Assembly (NCBI GenBank): GCA_965240325.2
Contig: OZ251231.1
Coordinates: 930,001 to 994,000 of the forward strand
From: Rebecca billardiae RCC1528
Lineage: Eukaryota; Protista; Haptophyta
DNA length: 64,000 nt
Direction: 5' to 3'
Position numbers and translations under genes: made by a program. The notes under the pieces are model-generated. The model had not been told where the DNA came from and made no database searches. It saw nothing but the letters and a program-made list of their open reading frames with translations. Shown here one piece after another: positions 44,709-64,000 of the stretch (position 1 is its first letter; each line of letters begins with the position of its first letter).

Positions 44709-45985
44709 ACTGCTGCACGCATGATGGTAGTGACAGAGTACTGGCGGTACTGCTGCGCGCATGGTATGGTACTGCTGGGCGCGTGGTATGGCACTCACAT
44801 GGTCGTATGGTATGGTACTGCTGCACGCATGATGGTATGGTACTGCTGCGCGCATGGTAGCAGTATGGTAAGTACTGCTGCGCGCATGGTATGGTACTGC
44901 CACGTGCATGGTATGGTACTGCTGCACGCATGATGGTATGGTACTGGCGGTACTGCTGCGCGCATGGTATGGCACTGCTGTGCGCATGGTATGGTACTGC
45001 TGCGTGCATGGTATGGTACTGCTGCACGCAAGAAACAAACAAGCGCGCAGGTGGTGGGAGCCAAGCAAGCAGACGCAAGCGCGCAGGTGGTGGGAGAAGC
45101 AAGCGCGCAGGTGGTGGGAGTGCTCGCAGGTGGTGGGAGAAGCAAGAAGCAGCAGCTCGAAGCAGCAGGCACTCCGATGCGGCACCTCCCGAAGCTGCTG
45201 CATCCTTCTGACCGCCCGCGGTTTGCAGACGAAGCGTCACGCGGTGCGCGCAGCGGTCATGGCGCTGGGTCCGGCGAGCAGCCGGGGTGAGGTTCAGGTA
45301 CGAGGGGCACACACTATTCCGCATGCGCCTTGGCACCGACCACGCGCCGCATCCACTGGGAGATCTGCGGCCGCAAGAAGCGCGCGCCTTGGCGAGGGCG
45401 AAGCATCGTAGACCCGCCTGCGCAGTGCTTCCGCACCGCCGGCCGGGGCGGTCCGGCACTGCTTGCTTGGTGTTTGTCCGGCTTCCTCAGCTCATACATC
45501 ATCAGTCCTCACTCCTTCACCGATCACTGCGCACCGATCTCATGAAGGGAGCGAGCAACGGAGGAAGCTGAAGCACCTTCACAGGTCCTTGCTCTCTTGA
45601 AACAGTGAGGAACCGGAAGCAACCGAGAGGAAGCTGAACTGAGGAACCTTCACAGGTCCTTGCTCTCTCCGCAGCTTCATACTGTACTGTGTACCATGCA
45701 CACAGCAGTACCATTGCCATACCGCATGCGCGCAGCAGTACCATACCATGCTCGCAGCTGAGTACCATACCATCATGCGCGCAGCAGTACGGCCATCATG
45801 CGTGCAGCAGTACCATACTACCATGCGCACAGCAGTACCATACCATGTGCGCAGCAGTACCATACCATGCGCGCAGCAGTACCATACCATCATGCACGCA
45901 GCAGTACCATACGACCATGCTTGCAGCGCAGTACCATACCATGCGTGCAGCAGTACCATCCCTACCATGCGTGCAGTAGTGCCAT
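44709..45985. mobile_element. Foldback-like element, copy 1: 22-bp satellite array (forward, ~44709-45030), core (~45030-45680), same satellite inverted (~45690-45985)
   Basis: GGTATGGTACTGCTGCGCGCAT-like units on the left, their reverse complement (ATGCGCGCAGCAGTACCATACC) on the right; no transposase. Confidence 0.6.
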
Positions 45986-47305
45986 ATGGTACTGCCGGCA
46001 CACATGGTATGGACTATGGTACTGCTGGGCGCATGGTATCCATGGCACTCACATGGCATGGTATGGCACCGCTGTGCACATGGTATGGTACTGCTGCAAG
46101 CATGGTAGTATGGTACTGCTGCACGCATGATGGTATGGTACTGCTGCTCGCATGGTATGGTACTGCGGCGCGCATGGTATGGTACTGCTGCGCGCACTGT
46201 AGTGTGGTACTGCTCGCTCGGTGTGCATGGTATATGGTACTGCATGGTATGTTATGGCCTACTGCTGCGCGCATGGTATGGTACTGCTGCATGCATGGTA
46301 GGTACTGCTGCGCACATGATGGTATGGTACTGCTGCGCGCATGGTATGGTACTGCTGTGCGCATGATGGCGGTATGGTACTGCTGCACACATGGTGGTAT
46401 GTACTGCTGCTGCGCGCATGGTATGGTACCGTGCCGCGCGGCATGGTATGATACTGCTGCACGCATGATGGTATGGTACTGGCGGTACTGCTGCGCGCAT
46501 GGTATGGCACTGCTGTGCGCATGGTATGGTACTGCTGCGTGCATGGTATGGTACTGCTGCACGCAAGAAACAAGCGCGCAGGTGGCGGGACGGCCAAGCA
46601 AGCAGGAGTGGTGGGAGAAGCAAGCGCGCAGGTGGTGGGAGTGCTCGCAGGTGGTGGGAGAAGCAAGAAGCAGCAGCTCGAAGCAGCAGGCACTCCGATG
46701 CGGCACCTCCCGAAGCTGCTGCATCCTTCTGACCGCCCGCGGTTTGCCACGAAGCGTCCGCAGACTCGGCGAGCCGCACGCGCACGCGGTGCGCGCAGCG
46801 GTCATGGCGCTGGGTCCGGCGAGCAGCCGGGGTGAGGTTCAGGTACGAGGGGCGCACACTATTCCGCATGCGCCTTGGCACCGACCACGCGCCGCATCCA
46901 CTGGGAGATCTGCGGCCGCAAGAAGCGCGCGCCTTGGCGAGGGCGCCACGAAGCATCCGGTAGACCCGCCTGCGGAGTGCTTCCGCACCGCCGGCCGGGG
47001 CGGTCCGGCACTGCTTGCTTGGTGTTTGTCCGGCTTCCTCAGCTCATACATCATCAGTCCTCACTCCTTCACCGATCACTGCGCATCATGAAGGGAGCGA
47101 GCAACTGATGTAAGCACCTTCACGGGTCCTGCTCTCTTGCCGAACCGTGGCGGTCCGGCACTGCTTGCTTGGTGTTTGTCCGGCTTCCTCACCTCATATG
47201 TACATCATCAGTCCTCACTCCTTCACCGATCACTGCGCATCATGAAGGGAGCGAGCAACTGATGTAAGCACCTTCACGGGTCCTGCTCTCTTGCCGAACC
47301 GTGAG
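45986..47305. mobile_element. Foldback-like element, copy 2: forward satellite (~45986-46565) + core copy (~46565-47149) + ~150-bp tandem duplication (~47150-47303); right arm missing
   Basis: The core is nearly identical to 45030-45600 (caagcgcgcaggtggtgggag repeats, ...ggttcaggtacgagggg..., ...catcatcagtcctcactccttcaccgatc...). Confidence 0.6.
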
Positions 47306-48403: not shown

Positions 48404-48878
48404 TGCGAGGAGGGATCCGACACTCCCCTTGATCCGAGCGACCTTTGAATCATCATCATCACTACATCTCTTGCTGTTCCCGGGGACGTAGCTGGGGGAG
48501 TTGACTGACAGATTGCACGAAAAACCGTTGGCCCCAATTGGGATCTGACTAAACTGTATTCCTCGGGATACCTATTGGAAGGCCATCAACCTTGTAAGAA
48601 TCACCGGACTTCGCGTGTCCTACCGGAAAACTCGCTCCGCTCGCATGCTTGTTCTTACAGAACAACCAATGCGAGCGGGGCTCGCGATAAAGAGCGAGTG
48701 ACTCACTCAGTTTACAGTTACTCAGCGACGCGACGCCATTGAGTATGGACGAACATCACCCACTACAGTCTGCGTGATGTGCATGCGAGGGCAGGTATTA
48801 TTGCAGCACATATGTGAGCATGCAGCAAATGCCGATACACACCATGCCGAAATAACTGGTGATGTATACACACACACA

Positions 48879-48946
48879 TATATATATATATATATCTATA
48901 TATATATATAGATATATATATCTATATATATATATATAGATATATA
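48879..48946. repeat. Interrupted (TA)n microsatellite
   Basis: tatata with occasional tcta/taga; further (TA)n tracts at 29570-29610 and 49421-49450. Confidence 0.95.
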
Positions 48947-49418
48947 CTTGCGCGTGGTGGCGAGCACAAGCAAAGAACGCAGAGGAGATGGGACCTCGGG
49001 CTTTGCAGATGCGCAGGCAAGCAGGCGGGGCTGCCGAGAGATGAGCAACTCGGCCCGAAAGGTCGTGTAACCGATGATCGAGCGAGCTGTCTGCTAGGTG
49101 GGCTGCTTGACGAACTTTGGTAAGTTGCCACGCCGACTTAAGATGACCTTGGATATGATCTCGAGCGCCGGATAGTGGAGAGGAGCGGGTACTTACAGAG
49201 GAGCCAGTGTGGTTGGCGGGTTGGCCGATATGAAAGGACCAGCGCCCGCCATGATGATGATAAAGGATAGCTCCGTGGCCGATGTCCGGCGATGAGCTCC
49301 GGAAATCGACTGCAACTACCTGCAGGACCTAGAAGACGATGGCGGGCCCCCTTGTCCACCAGCTGCGCGTTGCCTTTCCAGCCTCCCGACACACTCGGTT
49401 ATAACTCCGTTATAACGC

Positions 49419-49455
<37 letters not shown>

Positions 49456-49670
49456 TCGCATTGAAATAATATAGCATATATCATCATCAACTACGACTGA
49501 TGATTAATCGTCCGGCTGATGTCGTCAGCAATTTAATTACGATGACCCGTAATAATTTACCGCCGCGTATGATTGTAGCCAATCAGCATTGCGTCACTTA
49601 TATTAGTCTTACTCGTCTTACGATTATGCTGCTGCTACGAGTACGACGTACAAGCTCGTCATGTAATCCT

Positions 49671-49672
<2 letters not shown>

Positions 49673-49762
<90 letters not shown>

Positions 49763-49770
49763 GAGAGAGA
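49673..49770. repeat. (GA)n microsatellite
   Basis: More than 40 perfect GA units. Confidence 0.98.
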
Positions 49771-51688: not shown

Positions 51689-54449
51689 TCACATATGCTT
51701 GCCCTTGGCCTCCTCGTAGTCCGGGTCGTCAGACTCCTCGCCCTCAGTCGGCGACTCGTCGTCACCGCTGCCATCGAAATCAATCGCAATGAGCCGATCG
51801 GATCTGCCAGGCTGGCTGCGCGCCTCGACGCTCGGCCCGCTGCCCAGCTGGCGCGGGTACCCGCGCGCGCTCCTCCAGCTATCCACCCCTTGGAATAGCC
51901 GGCGGAGCATGCCCCAGGCGTCCGTCAGACTCCCCGCCTCCACATCCGGCCGCAACTCGTTGACCAGATCTGCGAGCGCATCTTCCGCTCGGCGCAGCGC
52001 GTGGTCGGGCGCCGGGATGGAGCCCGCCGGTGCGCTGGGGGCGCAGACCACGGCTGTCCTTGGGCTCGTGTCTCGCGGCGTGGGCTTCCTCTTCTTCGCC
52101 CCCTTGGCCGAAGGCGACTTGTTCGCCGGGGCCTCCCGTCTGCGGATGGCGTGCTCGATGGTGAGGGGCACGACCGGAGTCACCTGGCGGGTGGGTGCGC
52201 GCCCGCAGGGGCGCCGAGGGGCGCACGCGTCGGCGAGCGGTGTGCGCAGTGATGCACGGCGCTCCGGCGGCGCGGCGGTCGGGGCGAGCGCGCGCACCGC
52301 GCGGCCTGATCGCCGGGTCTCCGTGGGCAGCTCGGCGCTCGCAGGGCGTGGGCGCGCGCCCGGCAGCGCCTTGCGCGGTCGCTTGGCGCCCGAAGCGGTG
52401 GCGAGCGGCGCGTCCGAGGCCTCCGCCGGCGCACCGGCCGACTCGTCCGCTGGCGCCAGCGGTGCCGAGGACTCGGCGGCGGAGAGCAGCTCCGGCGGCG
52501 TGTTGGCGATGGCCCACTTCACCTGCGCCTGCCGCACCCTGAAGACGAGCTGCATCAGGGACAGGCCGCCACACACGCCCGCTGCAGCCGGCGCGCCGCC
52601 CGCCGCGCCGCCCGCCGTGCCGCCGCCCGGTGCGCGCGCTCGCTGCGTGAGGCGCTCCTTGGCGTGGTCGAGCTGGAGGCCGTGCTGCTCCTCGTGCAGC
52701 CGGACCCAGAACAGCGCGCCGCACGTGAGGCGCGCGTACAGCAGCTGCGCCCGAGCGGCGATCGAACGCGCGCACACGGTCAGCACGCGCACGCGACGCA
52801 GCGCGCGCGGACGGCCGCGGCCACGCCCGCGCGCAGTCGCCGCGCCGCGCGCGCACCGGCTTCGGCTTCCACTTGCGGAACTCTGCGTACGAGAGGCCAA
52901 TCTCGCTCGCCATGTCATCCTCGGTCGACAGCCCGAGATACTTGCACAGCTCGTCGTACACCGGCCGGGACGTGCCGTCGCCGCGCCCGGTCGCGATGGT
53001 GATCACCGACTCGAGCGAGACGCTGTCGCGCGACGGGTCGGCGAGCACGTCGCCCGTGAACCACGCGTGCGGCCGCCCTGCGTTGAGCACCTTCTCCTTC
53101 CAGCACACGTACGTGCCGGAGAGGCCGATGCCAGACTTGTGGAGGGTGTACCGAGTCGCGCCCTCGCGCATCAGCGCGTCCTGCAGCGGCGGCCAGCACC
53201 CGACCATCCGCCCGCGCACGCCGGGCAGCTCGATGCACTCCGCGCCACTCAGCTTGCACTTCATGTCCGGAGCCCTCGCGATCTCGCTCAGCTGCGCGAG
53301 CAGCGAGTCCCGCTCGAGCCGCAGCTGCTGGCCCTGCACGCTCGCGCGCAGCGGGCGCGCGCTCTCGTCGTCTCCAAACTCGGGGAGCGGGAAGAGCCCA
53401 GTGCCCGGCGGCAGGTACGAGGCGGCGAGCTCGTCCAAGAGGTCGTCCGGGCACACGAGGCGGCGCGGCGCGCCAACCGCCGCACCGCACCCGCCTCCGC
53501 CACCCGCGGCGGAGCTCGACGGCTCCGGCTCCGCCTGCGCGCGCTGCACGCGCGATGGAGGCGGCACAAACGCCTCCAAGTCCTTGTCATCGTACTCGAC
53601 GGTCACGCTGACGCCCCCGGACTCACTGCAGCCGCCGCACGTGTGCACAAAGGCCACGCGCCCGGGGAACCAGCGCCCCTTCGCCAGGAAGTTCGCGCTC
53701 ACGCGCTCCCCGACCCGCAGCCTCTCGGCCGGGCGCGAGCGCAGTTCCGCCGCGAGGTTCCAGTAGATGAAGCGCGTGCACCGGCTGCCGCCGCGCGCGC
53801 GCATGCTCGCGCGCACGGTGTCGACGAGCGCGTGCAGCACGCGGCCCGTGAGCTCGCGGTTCTCGCCGCAGGCGAACGGGTGTGCCGTGAGAATGCCCGC
53901 CTGCACGATGAAGCGGTCGCGGTCGCGCTCGCCGCCAAAGTCGAGTGCCGCGCCAGCGCGATCGAGGCTGACGCCACAGACGGCGCGGCTCACGGCCGCA
54001 TCGTCGAAGAGATCGTCCAGCTGCGGGCCGAAGCGGCCAATCCCCGCCCGACCGCCCACCTCGTCCACCGTGATCACGAGCAGCTCAGCAGCGCTGTCGG
54101 CCGGTCCAAGCTTCGCCTGGAAGAGCTTGGAGCCGACGCCCTTGAGGTTGTGCCGGCCGTACGTGACGTCCTTCTGGTGACCCGTGTCAAAAAGCTTGGC
54201 CAGCTCCTCCACGTAAGTGTCCGTCTCGACGACGAGGAAGGGCCCCTCGGCACGCCACGGCTCGTCCTCCGTCGGCACAGTGATTGTCTCGTGCAGGGCC
54301 ACGCGCACCTCCGAGTCAAGGCTGAGAGCGTTGTCGACGACCTCCTTGAAGGCGCTCGACAGCCGCGCGTGGACCTCCTTCTGCGGGAGCCAGCAGCTAG
54401 TCGAGGTCTGCGCAGGGCCGGCGACGACGCGCTGCTGCCCGAGCGACAT
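51689..54449 (-). CDS. Divergent MORC-like GHKL protein with an inserted Tudor-like domain; predicted introns 52745-52856 and possibly 52184-52297
   Basis: AFKEVVDNA (motif I), GRHNLKGVGSKL (motif III), LLVIT, TRFIYWNL, LAASYLP, SVQGQQL and GTYVCWKEKVL follow MORC order; Tudor-like LRVGERVSANF...GRWFPGRV...VEYDDKDLE. Confidence 0.68.
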
Positions 54450-54820: not shown

Positions 54821-55630
54821 TCAGCCCCGGGACCGCTTGAAGCTGGCGGACACCCATTTTCCAGCTGTCGTGTCCCACTTCTTCCCATTGGGCGGGCGGC
54901 CTCGGGGCTGCGCGTAGCCGCCGTCGGCGGGGGGCTCCGATGGCCGCGCGGGCTTCTCTGGAGCCGTGTAATCCGGGTCGTCGACGTACTCGCCGCGCTC
55001 CGCGTCCCAGAGCTTGCCCTGCGGCGGACGACCCTTCGGCCGCGTGTGCCCCTTTGGCGGCTGCTCTCGCGCGGGCTTCTCTGGAGCCGTGTAGTCCGGG
55101 TCGTCGACGTACTCGCCGCGCTCTGCGTCCCAGAGCTTGCCCTGCGGCGGACGACCCCTCGGCCGTGTGTGCCCCTTTGGCACCTCTCGCGCGGGCTTCT
55201 CTGGAGCCGTGTAATCCGGGTCGTCGACGTACTCGCCACGCTCGGCGTCCCAGAGCTTGCCCCGTGGCGGAAAACCGCGCGGCCGCTTGTGCCCCTTCGG
55301 CGGCTGCTCTCGCGCGGGCTTCTCTGGAGCCGTGTAATCCGGGTCGTCGACGTACTCGCCGCGCTCCGCGTCCCAGAGCTTGCCCTGCGGCGGACGACCC
55401 TTCGGCCGCGTGTGCCCCTTTGGCGGCTGCTCTCGCGCGGGCTTCTCTGGAGCCGTGTAATCCGGGTCGTCGACGTACTCGCCGCGCTCCGCGTCCCAGA
55501 GCTTGCCCCGCGGCGGACGACCCTTCGGCCGCGTGTGCCCCTTTGGCGGCTGCTCTTCGGGAGACGAGTCGGATTCTCCCTCGGACTCACTCCCACTCTC
55601 GCTCACCTCGATCGCGCGTTTTGGTCCCAT
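54821..55630 (-). CDS. Repeat protein with five 40-41-aa units plus one divergent unit, each an AT-hook-like (K/R)GRPP followed by GK.WD...G.(Y/W)V
   Basis: DNA unit spacing 123/120/123/123 bp; acidic Ser-rich N-terminus; the frame is preserved through the indel. Confidence 0.8.
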   Translation of the reverse strand: MGPKRAIEVSESGSESEGESDSSPEEQPPKGHTRPKGRPPRGKLWDAERGEYVDDPDYTAPEKPAREQPPKGHTRPKGRPPQGKLWDAERGEYVDDPDYTAPEKPAREQPPKGHKRPRGFPPRGKLWDAERGEYVDDPDYTAPEKPAREVPKGHTRPRGRPPQGKLWDAERGEYVDDPDYTAPEKPAREQPPKGHTRPKGRPPQGKLWDAERGEYVDDPDYTAPEKPARPSEPPADGGYAQPRGRPPNGKKWDTTAGKWVSASFKRSRG

Positions 55631-55994
55631 GATCGGGTGCGAGCTCGGGCTTGGCGGTGCGCGGCGGTGGTGGCGGCGGCGGCAGCGGTGGGCCCCCCCG
55701 AACGAACGGCGAAAACTCAGAACTCTCGGAGGCCCCGCGTGGCCGCGCCGCCGCGCGCGCGGCAAGACAACTTTTAAAAATAAAACTGTGCCTGCCCGCC
55801 GCTGCCCGTGCGGGCGCGGTCGGGTCACCGGTCACTGGTCAGCAGTGCCTCCGGACTCACAGTGCCTCCGGACTCACATCGAATTGGTCCGGTTGGCTGT
55901 GGGGGTTTTAACCGTCGTCGCGTTATTCTGCTCCTAAACTCGGCTGTGTGGAGGCCGGTTGGCGCCTTGGCGGACGGCTCCCTACCACCGCCTC

Positions 55995-56474
55995 ATGCCC
56001 GTCGCACGAGCGCTCGGATCGCGACTTCTGCCGGCGGCCGCTTCCGTCGTAGCGCCACCTCGGCAGCTCCTTGCGCCTCTGCGCGCTCCCACGTTCGATC
56101 AGTGGGTGCGCAACAAGCAGCCGGTGGCCAAGCTGGAGGCCATCTCACGGCGAGCACTCCCTGCGCGCCGCACGGATCCATCCAAGGTCCAGGCGCCGAT
56201 CGTTCGGGCTGAGGGCAAGCCATCCGTGTTGCTGCACCCCGAGCCCACCGCCCAGGTCCTCCAAGCCGGAGAAGCCGCCCGTGCGGAGCTCGGCAAAATG
56301 CTCGGCAAGCTGAGGGCGCATTTCAAGACATTTCAAGAGCGGGACATGTCTGGTGAGCACGGCTGGGCCCGAGTTGGAGCACGAGCCAAAGCGAAGAAGC
56401 AGAAGAAGATGATGCGAAAGTTGGAAGCAGCAAGCCAACAGCGGCTCGTGCTTGATGTCTACGAGCACGCTTAA
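55995..56474 (+). CDS. Hypothetical basic protein with a mitochondrial-presequence-like N-terminus
   Basis: MPVARALGSRLLPAAASVV... is Arg/Ala/Leu-rich with no acidic residues; Lys-rich helical C-terminus. Confidence 0.55.
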   Translation: MPVARALGSRLLPAAASVVAPPRQLLAPLRAPTFDQWVRNKQPVAKLEAISRRALPARRTDPSKVQAPIVRAEGKPSVLLHPEPTAQVLQAGEAARAELGKMLGKLRAHFKTFQERDMSGEHGWARVGARAKAKKQKKMMRKLEAASQQRLVLDVYEHA

Positions 56475-57499
56475 GACGCTGGACAGGACTGTAAAGTTTC
56501 GACGGTCACGCGGTCGAGGGGCGGGTGACCGCGACGGCTGCGGACGTCCGAGCTGCACCCGGCGCCGGCAGTCGCGACCGCGCGGCAGCCCGCGAGACTT
56601 AGGAGCTAGTGACACCTCAGCCTCAGATGCGCGAGTCACTAAGAGTAAGAGTGAGCTACTGGTCAGTCGTCATCTGAGTAACTTTAAGAGTCAGAAATCG
56701 TAGTAGTCACGCTGAAGCAGCTCGCTCGGATCCAGCAGAATCGGGATCCGCACCCCGGGTCGCTGATGATTAATTATATGAGAATTCTCAATAATATTAT
56801 TAATAAGTCATTAAGATACTAAGCAGCAGACTTTTCAGTGTAACTCAGCAGACTTAGTTAATATCAAATCTGACGAGCGAGTTCTAATAGTAACTAATAA
56901 TAATAGAGACTAAACTCGGTGCCGGGTGCGGCCTGGCAGCCGCCGCCTGAGTAACACTGACTGACCGTGTAGCGTCACCGGTCAGTGTCGGTCAGGGCTG
57001 AGCCCGCGCTGACTCGGCGGCTGACTGCTGAGCCGCTGGCCCTGACGACCGGAGTCGGCGCGGCTAGTGGGACCGGCGACTTCACAAGTGACAACTGAAG
57101 GTCCGGTCTGTCCCAGCATTAGGAGTCTACACGACCAAGGGTGGAGCGGGATAGCTCTATGCCTGGAATACGGACCCATAAGGAATCAAGATGACGACTT
57201 GAATAAATCAAGCGCGGCGCGCAGCGCCGCGGGCCGTGGCGAGCGGTGCGCGGCGCCGCGGCGGCCGCGGGCCCGGCCGCAGGCGCCGCACCGCCGCCCG
57301 CGCCGCGCGCCGCGGCCGGCGCGGCCCCGACGGCCGGCACTGCGCCGCTCGACGACTAACTAGTCATCGTCAGACGTCAGTGGCTCAGTCGTCGTCAGGA
57401 CGAGCAAGAAAGGACGCCTTGTGCGCAGCCTTCCTCAACCGCGACAGCACCCGCTGGGACGCACCGCCGCTGTCGCGAGCTGCGCACTGGGCTTCGGAT

Positions 57500-57700
57500 C
57501 TGCTTGCTTGATGCTGTGGTGTCCACCGCAGCGTACCACTGCCGTACGTACCTCGAGAGGTCAAGTTGGTGCAGCTGCGGGAGGTTGAAGGACAGCCACA
57601 CGAGCATGGCCAAGGTTCCGTCGGCAAGCGAAGCTCGCTGGGTCGTCTTCGCCAGCGTCATGTTGCGCCCCGCGCGCTCAGTGTCCGACTCTTGCTAAGT
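57500..57700 (-). pseudogene. hAT transposase C-terminal dimerisation-domain-like remnant
   Basis: ESDTERAGRNMTLAKTTQRASLADGTLAMLVWLSFNLPQLHQLDLSRYVRQW fits the S..ER.FS.M...KT..R..L...TL..L..I..N.P pattern; in-frame stop immediately upstream. Confidence 0.5.
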
Positions 57701-58415
57701 GAGAGTGCGCACGAGCTGCACAGGCGGTGGTGATCAACAGCAGCGGCGATGCGCGCACGAATATCCGATAGCGATCATGTAGTCCCTTGGACTCTCGAGA
57801 CAGTGTCATCGCAGCGGAGGCGCTCTGACCTGGTCAAGCCGCCCGCGCTCATTGCGAATGCTCACGTTCCAGCAAGCGGAAAGGCTCATCGAAGACGACG
57901 CTTTGCTGCTCGAGCACGCAAAGAGTGACTTGCTCCGAGAACTCGACAACCGGACGGGCGGTGGAGCCACTCTCGACTACTCACCAAGAGCATTCCTCAG
58001 GACCGCAACCACATCTGGTCGCACACCATCTGCTCACATGTCGTTGGGCCGCGTGCACGTGGAATTGCACTCGGTCAGACACGTGATCGCTCATGCAGTC
58101 GGCAAGCAGCGGCAAGGAGCCGGGGTTGCGGGCCACCAAGGTGTCCCAAGGCTCTGAGCATACCCACAGACGACATTTGAGGCCACCTGCGCCGCCACAA
58201 CCGCACCGCCAGTGCGTGGATTCCCGGCCTACGCTCGCTGTGGACCACGCCGCCGCCGGCCAGGCAGCCATGCTGACAAATAAGAGGACGGGTGTGGGCG
58301 CCCAGCCACGTCTTGATTTTCTGGCGGTGGGCTCGATCGACAACTTGATGATTTTTTCCTGCATCTGCGAGCATACGCTCAAACCCGATTCCAGCCTTGT
58401 ACACGACGTCGCTCA

Positions 58416-60944
58416 TCATGTCATCATCGCGAATGTCAGTGAGGCGTCGCGGGCGGTTTTCGGACGGCGCCACGCCTCGGCCGGCGCGTGGCCCATGCAC
58501 CATCGCCGGCGCTTCTCGCCCGGGAGCACATAGTCGGCGGTGCGCGCGCAGCCGTTCGCCTCGCATCGGCGGCGCTTGACGCTCAGCGCGTCCGGCGGCG
58601 CGTGCTGCGCGCACCAGCGGCGGCGGCGGCGGCTCGCGGTCGGCAGGGCATACGACGCTTCGAGCTCGCACCCCTCGCGTTCGCACGTGCTGTACGCCCG
58701 GCCGCGGGAAGGCGGCGGCTCCTTCTGCGGAGGCGGCGGCATGCTAGCCGGCACGTGCAAGCAGCGCCTCTCGACGCACGCCTTCCGCCGCCGCCGCGGG
58801 TTTCGGCAAGGGCCGCACTGCCCGCACGGCGCGCGGCGGCAGCCGGCGCACACGCCGCAGCGCTTGAGCGTCAGCCGGGGCTCGCGCACGCACACGCGCT
58901 TGAGGCAGCGCCGCGCGCCCGAGGGGTGGCGGCACGCGCTGCACGCGCCGCACGGCGCGCGCTTGCAGCCCGCGCACGTGCGGCAGCTCAGCCTGAGGAA
59001 GACGCACTTGGAGCGCGTGCATGGCTTCTGCCGCTGCGGGTGTGTGCAGTTCGCGCACGAGCCGCACGGCGGGCGCGTGCAGCCAGCGCACTGGCCGCAC
59101 CGCCTGCTCGTCGCCATCGGCGTCTCCCGGAAGCACGCGCGCCGCACGCACCGCCGCGTCCCAGACGGCTCGAGGCAGTGGGGGCACAGGCCGCACGGTC
59201 GGCGCATGCACGCCGAGCACGTGCCGCACGGGGCGGCATGCGCCTCCCTCGCGCGCTTGCGCGGCGGCTTGCTCGACGGCTCGACGCACTTGCGCGCGAC
59301 GCAGCGCTGCTTGCGCTCGGGACGGAGGCAGTGGGCGCATTGCCCGCACGGCGCGCGCGTGCACGCCGCACACGTGCCGCACGGCGCGCGGTTGCGGCGC
59401 CGCTTCGGCTGCACGGCGCCGTCGTCGGTCTGGCCGTCGGCCGCGGCGCCGTCGCGCGCGGGCGGGGCGGCCGGCGCGCCGACGCCGACGCCGACCGCCG
59501 CTCCGCTCGGCGCAGCATCGCGCTCCTTGCGCACGAAGATGGGCTCGAGCGCGCTCGCCGGGTGGAGGGCCTTGAGGTGGCTGCTCACATGGTGCCTCCG
59601 GTTGAGCCGGAACCCGTTTTTGGCGCGGCCGGGGATGAACGTCGTGCACACCCACTCGCCGTCGAGCAGGGTCGCGAATGGGCAGCGGTAGAGGCCTCTC
59701 GCGGAGCTGCGTCGCACCCGCTCGGCGCCGCCGGCCGCACCTTCGTGCGTAACAGCCGCCCCGCCCTCGCCGTCGCCGCCTGCGTCCGCAACTACAGCCC
59801 CGCCGCCGCCGTCGTCCGCGCGGCCATCGCCGTTCGGCGCGTGCGAGCGCGATGGCACCGAGGGCGGAGGCAGTGGCCCAGCGCGCTCGCTGCCACCCAG
59901 GCTGCTCGGCAGCGAGACGAGCGCGGCGGCCGCCGCAGCTTCGCGCGCTCCGTGCGCCGACGGGGCGATGCGAGTGCTGCCGCCCGCCGCACCGCCAGGC
60001 GCAGCGCCGCCGTCGAGGACGGCCGGCGGGCCGCCGCGCGCGGCGAGAGCATCGTCGAGCTGCCGCCGCCTGGGCCGCTTGCGCTGCCGGCCGGCCGGAG
60101 CGAATAAGAGCGGTTCTGGCGCCGGCTCCGACTGGCGCTTGCGCTTGGCGTGCGCCGCAAGACCGCGCGCACCGCTCTGCGCGTTGAGCCGACGCGTTTC
60201 CTCGCCTCGCGCCGCGCGCGCGCCCCCGCCGTTCGAGCGTGTGGGCGCGCGCGGCGCACCCGCCGGAGCGTCCGTCGGAGAGTCCGGCCTGGGCGCGAAG
60301 AGCGCCCGTTCGAGCTGTTCGTGCGCGTGGAGGACGTCGACCGCGCCCGGTGGCGCGTGGCGCGCGCACCATGCCCGCGAGCGCACCACGTAGCGGGCGC
60401 CCGGACGCCGGATGCCATGTGAGGCATTCTCCTCGCAGCCATCATGCAAGCACGAGACGTGCTTGTACGCGAGGTCGGCGGCGTTGGGCTGCCTCTGCAT
60501 CTCCTGCATCGCCTCGGCGATCTGTTGCACGTCGTGCTGCATCACCTCCTCGAGCACCACGCCGATCATGCGCGCGGCGCGCATCGCTGCACCGCTCACA
60601 GGGCACGGCCCGTCGCGCATGATTCTGCCCTTGGGCTGAGGCTCGACCAGGCGCGCCACATGCTCCACGGCCTGCTCGGAGAGGTGCTGCAGAGCCGGCC
60701 ACGCGTCCGCGCCTTCACCACCGGCATGCGCGTGGCGTTGTCGCAGCAGCCGCACCTGCGCCTGCTCCAGCCACGCACGCAGGCGCGCACGCCCCTCCGA
60801 GCTGACCGTGCGTTTGCCGCGCAGCCATTCGCGCAGGTCACGCTCACGAATGGCGCTCGCCCTCGCCGCGTGCTCCACTCCCAGCCCAGCGGCCTCCAGG
60901 TGCCGCGCGACGCGGGCCTTGAGTCGCGTCGGATCGTTGGCCAT
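58416..60944 (-). CDS. Multi-zinc-finger protein: HTH-like N-terminus, three EsV-1-7-like Cys/His motifs, one C2H2/BED-like finger and five tandem zf-CXXC domains
   Basis: Five CxxCxxC-x4-CGxCxxC-x8/9-C-x4-C units; C-x3-GC...WC-x2-HAP motifs; ARHLEAAGLGVEHAARASAIRERDLREWLRG. Confidence 0.85.
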   Translation of the reverse strand: MANDPTRLKARVARHLEAAGLGVEHAARASAIRERDLREWLRGKRTVSSEGRARLRAWLEQAQVRLLRQRHAHAGGEGADAWPALQHLSEQAVEHVARLVEPQPKGRIMRDGPCPVSGAAMRAARMIGVVLEEVMQHDVQQIAEAMQEMQRQPNAADLAYKHVSCLHDGCEENASHGIRRPGARYVVRSRAWCARHAPPGAVDVLHAHEQLERALFAPRPDSPTDAPAGAPRAPTRSNGGGARAARGEETRRLNAQSGARGLAAHAKRKRQSEPAPEPLLFAPAGRQRKRPRRRQLDDALAARGGPPAVLDGGAAPGGAAGGSTRIAPSAHGAREAAAAAALVSLPSSLGGSERAGPLPPPSVPSRSHAPNGDGRADDGGGGAVVADAGGDGEGGAAVTHEGAAGGAERVRRSSARGLYRCPFATLLDGEWVCTTFIPGRAKNGFRLNRRHHVSSHLKALHPASALEPIFVRKERDAAPSGAAVGVGVGAPAAPPARDGAAADGQTDDGAVQPKRRRNRAPCGTCAACTRAPCGQCAHCLRPERKQRCVARKCVEPSSKPPRKRAREAHAAPCGTCSACMRRPCGLCPHCLEPSGTRRCVRRACFRETPMATSRRCGQCAGCTRPPCGSCANCTHPQRQKPCTRSKCVFLRLSCRTCAGCKRAPCGACSACRHPSGARRCLKRVCVREPRLTLKRCGVCAGCRRAPCGQCGPCRNPRRRRKACVERRCLHVPASMPPPPQKEPPPSRGRAYSTCEREGCELEASYALPTASRRRRRWCAQHAPPDALSVKRRRCEANGCARTADYVLPGEKRRRWCMGHAPAEAWRRPKTARDASLTFAMMT

Positions 60945-61388
60945 GGATGGGCGATGGCGCCGACAGCGGCGGCCATCGACCAAGACTGTGTCGATCTCGC
61001 CTGCCTGAGCTGTGTGCGACTGTGCGTCTCTTATTCGGAGTAAACTGTAGTATACGGTACTGTCCAGTGTCTATTGTACTACTAGCATACTGCCGAGCCC
61101 GTGGACTCGTTGACTCATGAGTGGCCTCCGCCCAAGGGGAGTCCCCTTGCTCCGCCCGTTACCAGTACCCGGGGCCAAATTACCCGGCCCCGCGCGGACT
61201 TGAACTGTGACTCAGATTGCCAGAGTCTCACCAGAGTCCGAGACGACCGGTCCGGTTTGAGGTTGGGTGAGGGTGGTGGTTGGTTGGGGGCTGGCCAGGG
61301 TAGGGCTGGAGGCTTCGGCCGCCAGTCTGATCACCCGGAGCCCGTTATAAAGGGGAAATTTATACGGGTCCGCTGATTGTGAGAGTCC

Positions 61389-61389
<1 letters not shown>

Positions 61390-61432
<43 letters not shown>

Positions 61433-61452
61433 GGAGAGAGAGCCGAGAGAGA
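61390..61452. repeat. (GA)n microsatellite
   Basis: About 20 GA units plus a degenerate tail. Confidence 0.95.
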
Positions 61453-61583
61453 GCGGTTACTATAGTCAGGATCACCGCCGGACTCAGTAGTAGGACCGGG
61501 GACTCGTAAGTAAGGAATCGGTCACGGTACTAGACAAACAGTGAAACACTTAAGAGTAAGACCCGCGAACTCGAGGTCACTAG

Positions 61584-62552
61584 TCAGGAGCGCATCCTGC
61601 GCAACAGCAGTGCGAATCCCAGCGCGGCGCGCGCGGCCAGGCTTCCGGAGTCGTGTACCCGTCTGCGCCTGCGCGCGAGCACGAGGCGCTCGCCCCGCTG
61701 GAGCGACCCACGCCCCAGCAAGATGGCGCCCGACAGCAGTTCGTCCAGATCCTGCTGGCATCCGTCCACGAGCGCCGCGCGCTGGGCGCGTCGCGCGTCC
61801 TGCTCCTCCACGCTCGGGGCGGCGGCGTCGGCGCTGCCAGCTTGGTGCGCAGCGCGGGATGGCTCCTCACCAGGCGGCACGCGGCTCCAGATCTGCAGCT
61901 CGGCGGGGACGCTCGGCCACGAAGGTAACGGGATCGCCTCCGCACGTGCGAACCCTCCTGCATGCAGGGCTTGCAGAGCGCTCGGGCCAGCGGCCTGCGA
62001 CCCCGCATTGCCGCCATCCACCCAGGGCGAGTCGACGACGAGCGCGACGTGCGCACCGTCGAAGGCAGCGATGGCGTCCGCGGCCATCGACATCACGTGC
62101 GCGGGAGCGGTCTCGTCCACCTCGCACGGCGGCCAGCACAGCATGAGCGCCGAGCAGCGCACACCGGCCGCAGCGCCGGCATCGCCCTTGTCGACGCGCG
62201 TGAATGGGGGTGGCATGCACCAGCGCGCGTCGCGCTGGAGGGCGTGCTGCCAGTTGGGCCGCGCCTCGGGCTCAAGTGGCGCGGCATCGTATGCCTGCAC
62301 GCGCACGCCACGCGCGCGCAAGAGGCTCGCCCACAGGCCCGTGCCGGCGCCAATCTCGACCACGCCCGCGGGCTGCGCGACATGCGCGAGTGCGTCGAGC
62401 GCGCGGTCGCACGGTATGGCCCACGCGTAGATGCGGCGGAGAGGAGCCATGTACAAGGCCGCGTACGCCGCCTCGAAGCGCCCGACAAGCCCCGTGAGGG
62501 ACATCTCCCTCACGCAGCGCGAATGGAGCCGACGGAGCTCCGCCATCGTCAT
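61584..62552 (-). CDS. Class I SAM-dependent methyltransferase, uncharacterised family; start uncertain
   Basis: YAWAIP...ALDAL, motif I VVEIGAGTGLW, motif II VQAYD, ALMLCWPP. Confidence 0.82.
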   Translation of the reverse strand: MTMAELRRLHSRCVREMSLTGLVGRFEAAYAALYMAPLRRIYAWAIPCDRALDALAHVAQPAGVVEIGAGTGLWASLLRARGVRVQAYDAAPLEPEARPNWQHALQRDARWCMPPPFTRVDKGDAGAAAGVRCSALMLCWPPCEVDETAPAHVMSMAADAIAAFDGAHVALVVDSPWVDGGNAGSQAAGPSALQALHAGGFARAEAIPLPSWPSVPAELQIWSRVPPGEEPSRAAHQAGSADAAAPSVEEQDARRAQRAALVDGCQQDLDELLSGAILLGRGSLQRGERLVLARRRRRVHDSGSLAARAALGFALLLRRMRS

Positions 62553-62708
62553 CAACAACGCGGCCTCCTGAAACTCCAGAATGTTCGAGCAGAGATCGCA
62601 TCTCCGTGCAGACCTGGGCCCAGGATCGACTACGATAATTATTCGCGTTCGCGCCAATCAATCAGCGCTCTGATCAAACGCCCGGGCCCGCGAACGCACC
62701 GCATCGTA

Positions 62709-64000
62709 ATGCGCGCTAACGCGCTGTTGCACGCGGGCCTGCTCGCGGCGCTCGTCGGGCCTGGCGCGTCGTTCCGCGCACCCGGCCGCGTGCACCCCGG
62801 TGTGCGTGCTCCCATCCTACGCCGGGTGACGCAGCCCGCACCCATCGCGTGCTTCGCCAGCAAAACACTCGAGGACGAGGTCCCGCGCGAACGGCTGATT
62901 GAGATCTGCAACGCGCTGCGCGAGCGATGGGGCTCCGTCGAGCGGATATACGACACACTGCCGCACGCGACCGCGGACGGCGATGATGACGATGTCATCG
63001 ATATGGATGCCTTCATGCAGGCGCTCGTCGCCGCCAAAATCAGCGCGACGCCGCAGGAGATGGGCTCCATCTTCAAGGCATTCGATCTGGACAACTCGGG
63101 CACGCTCGAGCTCGAGGAGATCAGACTAGCGCTTCGCGAGAGCGGCGCGATCTTCCGCACGTATCAGCAGTCGCTCACCACGATGCTTGCCGCCATCGGC
63201 TCGGCGGCGCTCTTCGCCGCCGGCATCGCCGCCACGCGCGGGCTCTCGGACGCGGGCGACTTTGCGACCGCGTACATTGTGGAGGACTCGCTCTCGGTGG
63301 ACAACCTGTTCGTCTTCGTGCTGCTCTTCGAGTACTTCCGCGTGCCGCTGTGGCTGCAGCAGCGCTGCCTCACGCTCGGCATCGCCGGTGCGCGGCACGC
63401 GTCGACTCCGCTGCCGCGGCCGCGATCCGCGCGCGCGCGCGCACGCCCCCGCCGACCGCGCACCTCCCGCCCGCACGCGTCCCCTGCGCGCGCGCGCGGG
63501 CGCGCAGGCGCTGTGGTGCTCCGCGGCATCTTCATCGGTGGCGGGCTCGTGCTGATCGACAAGTTCCACGGGCTCGTCATCGGCTTCGGCCTCTTCCTCG
63601 TCTACTCGTCGTACAGCCTGCTCGCCGGCGGCGACGACGACGAGGAGGACGACATCGCGGACAACGCGGTCGTGCAGTGGGCGACCAGCACGCTCAACGC
63701 GACCAGCGACTTCGACGGAGGCCGGCTCTTCACGAAGCGCGGCCTGGAGCCGGGGGCGGCCGTGGGCGAGGGCCCTCTCGGCGTGCTGCTCTCAACGCTC
63801 GGCCGGCCCACGCCGCTGCTCCTCACGCTCATCTGCGTCGAGCTCTGCGACATCGTCTTTGCGGTCGACTCGATCCCGGCGGTGTTTGGCGTCACGTCCG
63901 ATCCCTTCATCGCGTTCACGTCCAACATCTTCGCCATCATCGGCCTGCGCTCGCTGTACTCGGTGCTGGCCTCGGCCGTGCAGGACCTGGTGCGCGCTCG
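62709..64000 (+). CDS. TERC: Plastid-targeted TerC-family membrane protein with an N-terminal EF-hand pair; partial (intron 63388-63507; next intron starts 63990)
   Basis: Signal peptide ending GASF plus an Arg-rich transit peptide; EF loop DLDNSGTLELEE; TerC motifs EDSLSVDNLFVF, G|AVVLRGIFI, VELCDIVFAVDSIPAVFGVT, FTSNIFAIIGLRSLY. Absent from the ORF track because the frame stays open to the window end. Confidence 0.93.
   Translation, partial: MRANALLHAGLLAALVGPGASFRAPGRVHPGVRAPILRRVTQPAPIACFASKTLEDEVPRERLIEICNALRERWGSVERIYDTLPHATADGDDDDVIDMDAFMQALVAAKISATPQEMGSIFKAFDLDNSGTLELEEIRLALRESGAIFRTYQQSLTTMLAAIGSAALFAAGIAATRGLSDAGDFATAYIVEDSLSVDNLFVFVLLFEYFRVPLWLQQRCLTLGIAGARHASTPLPRPRSARARARPRRPRTSRPHASPARARGRAGAVVLRGIFIGGGLVLIDKFHGLVIGFGLFLVYSSYSLLAGGDDDEEDDIADNAVVQWATSTLNATSDFDGGRLFTKRGLEPGAAVGEGPLGVLLSTLGRPTPLLLTLICVELCDIVFAVDSIPAVFGVTSDPFIAFTSNIFAIIGLRSLYSVLASAVQDLVRA

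Follow-up and report, generated by a model that had tools for sequence, protein, structure and literature searches.

A haptophyte gene that joins five tandem short CXXC fingers to EsV-1-7 motifs and a predicted lambda-repressor-like helix-turn-helix

In a 64,000-nucleotide stretch of the haptophyte Rebecca billardiae RCC1528 (contig OZ251231.1, positions 930,001 to 994,000; referred to hereafter as the window), one open reading frame (ORF) encodes an 842-residue protein in which five tandem CXXC zinc fingers are combined with three EsV-1-7 motifs and a predicted N-terminal helix-turn-helix (HTH). We infer that the product probably acts in the nucleus of the alga as a non-catalytic, DNA-binding regulator, with a likely preference for unmethylated CpG that would be conferred by the first CXXC finger. 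The architecture is apparently an undescribed combination of known modules. A preliminary description of the same DNA had gone further and proposed a multivalent reader of unmethylated CpG.

The array of five eight-cysteine units spans residues 522-728. Pfam zf-CXXC (PF02008, cut-off 26.5 bits) matched it in five stretches, with 56.2 bits on the array and 41.2 bits on the whole protein. For each finger taken singly zf-CXXC was again the best family, although every single score (15.9-25.1 bits) fell below the cut-off. The zf-CXXC cysteine pattern, CxxCxxC-x4/5-CGxCxxC followed by CxxRxC, has its eight cysteines in 5 of 5 fingers, so that all 40 are kept; the arginine of CxxRxC is missing in finger 3. 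A six-frame search found neither this pattern nor the C-x3-GC...WC-x2-HAP motif anywhere else in the window; over 100 shuffles of it, the mean count was 0 for CXXC units and 0.01 for EsV motifs. The five compact units noticed in the preliminary description are thereby confirmed by both pattern and Pfam. The idea that the array is an artefact of reading out of frame was rejected on the basis of host-like codon use and cysteine conservation. A single-sequence model of the array was poor (predicted local distance difference test, pLDDT, 47), and its five Foldseek rows, all CXXC but with E of about 6-9, were not counted as evidence.

The fingers belong with the short-linker CXXC domains. Their loops of 8-9 residues have no KFGG, which separates them from the type-1 domains of CFP1, MLL, KDM2 and DNMT1, and match in length the type-3 loop of TET3 (4z3c/5exh). 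The missing KFGG insert, correctly seen earlier, is the known type-3 state. Consistent with this, the closest solved relatives of the array were CXXC5 (E 6.7e-4), TET1, CXXC4 and TET3, all of type 3. Like TET3 (4z3c/5exh), finger 1 has a loop of 8 residues, and its C-terminal half aligns with the TET3 domain without gaps, placing KQ on HQ. In solved domains the CpG-reading tripeptide ends two residues before Cys7, and the dipeptide that contacts CpG is KQ or RQ in type 1 and HQ in type 3 (PMC3685328, PMC4642587). Here KQ was present in finger 1 only, within the tripeptide RKQ; HQ was present in none, so the type-3 resemblance does not extend to the dipeptide, and fingers 2-5 (GTR, RQK, GAR and RRK) have none of KQ, RQ or HQ at the recognition position. 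Fingers of type 2, such as MBD1 CXXC1/2, lack the dipeptide and do not bind DNA (PMC3685328).

We consider it unlikely that all five fingers read unmethylated CpG and that the protein is a multivalent sensor of CpG-dense unmethylated DNA, as the preliminary description proposed. The zinc scaffold is kept and strongly basic in 5 of 5 fingers (net charge +47 for the array and +5 to +9 for each of fingers 2-5), and arginine could replace glutamine at the guanine. Cytosine contacts and methyl exclusion in solved domains come largely from main-chain atoms (PMC4642587); these could survive side-chain changes, and fingers 2-5 may for this reason still avoid 5-methylcytosine (5mC). However, only 1 of 5 fingers carries KQ, RQ or HQ, the motif-less MBD1 CXXC1/2 are a precedent for loss of DNA binding (PMC3685328), and the gap between fingers 3 and 4 is 6 residues, leaving little space for minor-groove arms. 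Because only finger 1 has xKQ, a five-fold CpG reader is an overstatement; what limits the earlier proposal is the loss of glutamine in four fingers and not the lack of KFGG, and a CpG-reading role remains likely for finger 1, with its RKQ.

Pairwise identity among the fingers was 44-63% for protein and 58-72% for DNA. Together with the retention of all 40 cysteines and a GC content at third codon positions (GC3) of 0.92-0.98 over the array, this fits an old duplication under constraint. A one-finger cassette resembling that of the relative P0130, described below, is the likely starting point from which internal duplication expanded the array. A PSGxRR loop is common to fingers 2 and 4, the loops of 1, 3 and 5 are basic, and Pfam scores alternate along the array (25/16/25/17/25 bits). 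Such a pattern could mean that the array is a modular reader, each loop having been retuned, in the manner of C2H2 arrays, to a different short sequence or a different methylation state. Five different tripeptides on one scaffold are in line with this, as is the loop variation in two other proteins, P0109 and P0152, which by pattern have 5 and 7 short KFGG-less fingers, respectively, and no EsV-1-7 motif (P0152 has an eighth finger and C-terminal C2H2-like fingers by eye). The DNA identities do not group odd against even fingers, finger 1 being closest to 2 and 4, and the loops may have drifted in fingers that have lost base reading, which makes modular reading quite unlikely in our estimation. 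P0109 and P0152 also bear on copy number, which had been set against the one to three copies of characterised CXXC proteins; an array of this size is not unique, and tandem short-CXXC arrays may form a wider, undescribed class.

The second module is the EsV-1-7 motif. EsV_1_7_cys (PF19114, cut-off 25 bits) matched the whole protein in three stretches with 43.6 bits, which, with the C-x3-GC...WC-x2-HAP pattern, bears out the three motifs named in the preliminary description. When residues 516-842 were searched against 1.84 billion representatives, 960 matches were obtained at E<=0.001. Among the best 150 of these, 148 had no CXXC unit by pattern and most had 3-8 EsV-1-7 repeats. In 70 of the same 150 (listed as P0002-P0151) we found an RPD..ExDE motif, which we take to resemble that of PD-(D/E)xK nucleases; Pfam named no such nuclease in the 46 EsV-1-7 proteins scanned. 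Giant viruses have EsV-1-7 as well, and so does a Mariner transposase of Ectocarpus, which has gained the domain (PMC12477816). The RPD..ExDE proteins and this transposase are a hint that EsV-1-7 may serve DNA-acting proteins. The family shows expansion and patchy spread (10.1101/2024.02.19.579948, PMC7457493), and a further Pfam domain is stated to be absent from all Ectocarpus EsV-1-7 genes (10.64898/2026.04.27.720984).

At the N-terminus, an AlphaFold model of residues 1-485, built on an alignment of two sequences, was confident only for the first 60-70 residues, where it has four helices (pLDDT 69-90 over residues 1-60). VIA superposition placed this part on the POU-like domain of HNF1A (Z 9.7, root-mean-square deviation (rmsd) 1.9, 74 residues aligned) and the N-terminal domain of MuB (Z 9.1, rmsd 1.9, 63 aligned), followed by CUT, POU and XRE proteins. 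The top Foldseek rows were almost all XRE-type and a search of BFVD also returned XRE-type rows, none at E<=0.001 in either case, and the repressor family PHROG 2328 matched residues 5-65 (E 5.8e-4). Pfam gave no convincing HTH match on the N-terminus (HTH_3 and HTH_31 were not listed at E<=10), and ESM Atlas neighbours, which are leads only, scored 0.75-0.80, those with HTH_3 only 0.75-0.76. Because fold and profile agree, a lambda-repressor-like HTH is supported for the model, at a level above the sub-family. The Cro/XRE-like HTH of the preliminary description holds at the level of the fold, while no Pfam family passes. The predicted helical segment that follows is a possible dimerisation region.

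Between linker and array lies a putative C2H2-type finger, previously called BED-like. The C...C...H-x4-HP series is present, but the BED label was not sustained. A zf-BED finger is recognised by Cx2C..Hx3-5[H/C] with an N-terminal aromatic motif; here the first spacing is C-x11-C, and only the H-x4-H-P end is shared. Neither Pfam nor PHROG gave a family match (zf-BED was not listed), and the model is unreliable over this part (pLDDT 33-46).

The reading frame itself was found at the coordinates given earlier. From N- to C-terminus the product consists of the HTH, the helical segment, EsV-1-7 motif 1, the linker, the putative C2H2-type finger, the five CXXC fingers and EsV-1-7 motifs 2-3. It is basic (net charge +76, isoelectric point about 10.4), with several K/R clusters that are candidate nuclear localisation signals, and no catalytic domain was detected in the 842 residues, in agreement with the preliminary description. 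The synonymous codon score was 0.09, compared with 0.03-0.22 for five host reference ORFs and -0.13 to 0.07 for the remaining five frames. The signal was weak at residues 1-80 and 200-360, so a short in-frame intron may lie there; the single open frame fits the earlier claim of an intronless gene, subject to that reservation. A (GA)31 microsatellite lies at 61391-61453, about 450 bp upstream of the ATG.

The exact protein was absent from a 15-billion-sequence collection. One relative is P0130 (601 residues, a one-member cluster), in which one CXXC finger is followed by two C-terminal EsV-1-7 motifs in the same order, with 48% identity over this cassette (BLASTP E 5e-10). An EsV profile also found a weak motif at residues 165-180 of P0130, the place that matches motif 1 here, and by eye a helical N-terminus and a C/C/H/H stretch are arranged in similar order. 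P0130 differs in having a single finger with a 6-residue loop (SRG) and an extra KOW/SH3-like stretch by eye. Its finger was not listed for Pfam zf-CXXC at E<=10; a home-built profile of 12 unrelated short fingers matched it with an independent E-value of 8e-8 on a single-sequence scale. Homology over the full length is suggestive. A full-length MAFFT alignment of the two proteins misplaced the N-termini and was not used. Word-based searches at E<=0.001 returned 0 of 3664 sequences in one set, 1 of 1405 (P0152) in another, and only P0130 itself of 7994 scored. In ESM Atlas, a lead only, similarity was 0.76 to a zf-CXXC cluster that is mostly Haptophyta.

Table 1. The gene and the parts of its predicted protein, from N- to C-terminus (positions in the window; aa, amino acids)
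Feature	Positions	Strand	Basis
Single ORF, 842 aa (ATG at 60944, stop at 58416)	58416..60944	-	ORF translation
Predicted lambda-repressor-like four-helix HTH (XRE/Cro, POU-specific, CUT-type), aa 5-72	60729..60932	-	Model, fold searches, PHROG 2328
Predicted helical segment, aa 79-151	60492..60710	-	Low-confidence helices; local P0130 match reached by 2/500 shuffles
EsV-1-7 motif 1, aa 165-196	60357..60452	-	PF19114, 26.2 bits in N-terminal 215 aa
Ala/Gly/Pro-rich low-complexity linker with basic clusters, aa 215-410	59715..60302	-	No predicted structure; weakest codon signal of the ORF
Putative C2H2-type finger, C421-x11-C433-x22-H456-x4-H461-P	59559..59684	-	Sequence only
CXXC finger 1, RKQ, basic N-terminal arm; sole finger with canonical motif	59286..59381	-	Pfam 25.1 bits; TET3 alignment
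CXXC finger 2, GTR	59133..59228	-	15.9 bits
CXXC finger 3, RQK, without R of CxxRxC	59004..59099	-	24.7 bits
CXXC finger 4, GAR	58890..58985	-	16.8 bits
CXXC finger 5, RRK; finger matched by P0130	58761..58859	-	24.7 bits
EsV-1-7 motif 2, aa 754-781	58602..58685	-	PF19114, 49.8 bits for C-terminal pair
EsV-1-7 motif 3, aa 794-819	58488..58565	-	PF19114, within C-terminal pair

The name of the EsV-1-7 motif comes from a virus, and the motifs had been called virus-associated. We regard it as very unlikely that the protein, instead of regulating the host, is left over from or assists a mobile element or virus, as a DNA-binding protein of transposon or endogenous-virus origin. The occurrence of EsV-1-7 in giant viruses and on the Ectocarpus transposase (PMC12477816), the RPD..ExDE motif in 70 of the 150 best matches if our nuclease label is right, the likeness of the HTH to phage repressors and MuB, and the single exon would all suit such an origin. 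However, Pfam scans of window ORFs (among them 44 ORFs, chosen mostly from 68 coding-like of 367) found no transposase, nuclease or viral gene, and the neighbours named by Pfam are housekeeping genes (NSA2, Leo1, CDC50, a BK channel and TerC), so that the locus itself sits amid host genes. No terminal-repeat-like pair flanking the ORF was seen among the 25 longest of 106 inverted pairs at 55500-62000, and the gene has neither the neighbours nor the repeats expected of an endogenous giant-virus or transposon gene. Codon use is host-like, and a single exon is the state of 45% of Diacronema lutheri genes (PMC8379373). Of two scans of viral contigs for the fusion, one picked up a single locus, where a microvirus-like replication protein matched by chance, and the other gave 0 of 73 stretches; metagenomes gave 0 of 595. 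A degenerate finger pattern found 7 metagenome loci and 1 viral locus, in none of which was an EsV motif present by pattern; two or three of the 7 appear to be true CXXC fingers of the short type, each occurring singly, and the viral locus was discarded as an off-frame reading of a Pro/Ala repeat.

The host belongs to the Pavlovophyceae, and for the NSA2 protein of the window identity was 97.7% with a Rebecca sp. record, 92.3% with Pavlovales CCMP2436 and 90.8% with D. lutheri. In another haptophyte, E. huxleyi, CpG methylation of linker DNA has been reported and linked to DNMT5 (PMC9998398, PMC12344493, citing Huff and Zilberman 2014), and CXXC domains need linker DNA (PMC3685328). If the protein is a nuclear regulator, its HTH would pick the sequence or sites, and finger 1, in the manner of TET3 and CXXC5, would insert into the major groove where a cytosine or CpG is unmethylated, 5mC preventing this; TET3 is described as a flexible cytosine reader among type-3 domains. 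By touching the backbone, and perhaps bases in an altered way, fingers 2-5 would strengthen binding along nucleosome-free DNA. The EsV-1-7 motifs would bind zinc and play an accessory part, contacting nucleic acid or partner proteins. A bolder version would make it one of a Pavlovales regulator family with a phage-repressor-like HTH, EsV-1-7 motifs of the giant-virus type and an expandable CXXC array, in which retuned loops form a modular sequence-and-methylation code across the nucleosome linker rather than a single CpG sensor; this we regard as speculative and improbable. No nucleosome-scale CpG periodicity was visible across the 64 kb, which has little power for this purpose.

The fingers could also mainly bind proteins or RNA, the whole protein being a scaffold with its long disordered linker. 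Type-2 and some type-3 CXXC domains do mediate protein contacts (PMC3685328, PMC3032784), but the HTH fold, one intact xKQ finger and the array charge of +47 fit DNA better, and we give this alternative hardly any weight.

Several observations weigh against a CpG-preferring DNA-binding regulator. The glutamine that contacts guanine is missing in 4 of 5 fingers, and the KFGG-less CXXC domain of mouse Tet1 is reported as a non-binder of DNA (PMC3032784). For helical folds, which reach such values by common arrangement, caution is advised below a Z of about 13, and the HTH has 9.7. The N-terminal likeness to P0130 is not statistically significant, being reached by 79 of 1000 shuffles for residues 1-200, by 329 of 1000 for residues 1-160 and by 197 of 1000 for the C2H2-like part. 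No close orthologue was found in the searches described, so that purifying selection is not measurable. No demonstrated biochemical activity of EsV-1-7 was found in the literature searched, and neither 5mC nor DNMT5 in Pavlovales is mentioned in the available text of PMC9998398, PMC12344493 or PMC8379373. Finally, the observed/expected ratio in the window was 1.22 for CpG and 1.27 for GpC. The very CpG-rich genome of the preliminary description therefore holds as to CpG, but GpC is likewise enriched and the excess is not specific.

Among known proteins, CXXC4/IDAX, CXXC5/RINF, TET1 and TET3 have the same eight-cysteine scaffold and short linker without KFGG, and CXXC4 and CXXC5 are likewise non-catalytic. 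These type-3 proteins carry one finger with HQ, whereas there are five fingers here, one of them with KQ and the other four lacking glutamine at that position, as well as the HTH and EsV-1-7. MBD1 also has tandem CXXC fingers (three), just one of which has the DNA-reading motif and binds CpG, but its fingers are long-linker and stand beside an MBD and a repression domain, without EsV-1-7 or HTH. With Ectocarpus IMMEDIATE UPRIGHT, the brown algal family and the giant-virus proteins it shares PF19114 above cut-off; its three motifs are split around the CXXC array, compared with repeats that mostly occur without CXXC (148 of the 150 listed). The predicted four-helix fold superposes at about 1.9 Å on lambda-repressor-like HTHs (XRE/Cro, HNF1A POU-specific, CUT, MuB), but with 14-28% identity, no Pfam family that passes and no homeodomain following.

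A 2011 review of eukaryotic DNA-methylation systems reportedly discusses algal CXXC domains. We found no description of this fusion in the literature searched, a provisional result as most subscription papers lay outside the search, and the combination that had seemed unfamiliar earlier is so also by this measure. Papers combining CXXC with haptophyte or algal terms did not describe such arrays, and the EsV-1-7 literature, among the papers listed, concerned brown algae. For G. huxleyi, zf-CXXC is merely named among chromatin domains in the text available (PMC11798906).

An ORF at 54824-55630 (minus strand) of the window has five tandem 41-residue repeats (123 bp, 92% matches). Every repeat contains a GRP-P-R/Q core, which we take to resemble an AT-hook; Pfam on this ORF gave nothing but spurious-looking DUF matches. 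The gene at 51692-54449 (minus strand) has a Tudor-like stretch by eye and an N-terminal part that, we presume, resembles a GHKL/MORC ATPase, and neither Pfam nor PDB searches supported the ATPase or the Tudor label. If these labels were right, the CXXC, AT-hook-like and GHKL/MORC-like genes would possibly form three chromatin-gene candidates inside 10 kb. Farther away are 22-bp satellite arrays in both orientations (44746-46565). After them come a duplication of 154 bp (46995-47303) and extended runs of (AT)n and (AG)n (48878-49770). At the other side, 61929-63998 (plus strand) encodes a TerC-family membrane protein with preceding EF-hands, in which an in-frame low-complexity stretch resembles an intron read through without a stop.

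The 842-residue protein is a candidate reader of haptophyte CpG methylation, and the literature searched contained no description of such a reader. Nearly all CXXC biochemistry has been done on vertebrate proteins, which have one to three fingers; the five loops that occur naturally on a single scaffold here lend themselves to testing whether the specificity of CXXC is open to retuning. No activity is known for EsV-1-7, although it occurs in a brown-algal developmental regulator, and its placement here next to DNA-binding modules of two kinds suggests that EsV-1-7 has a role in the nucleus, directed at DNA.

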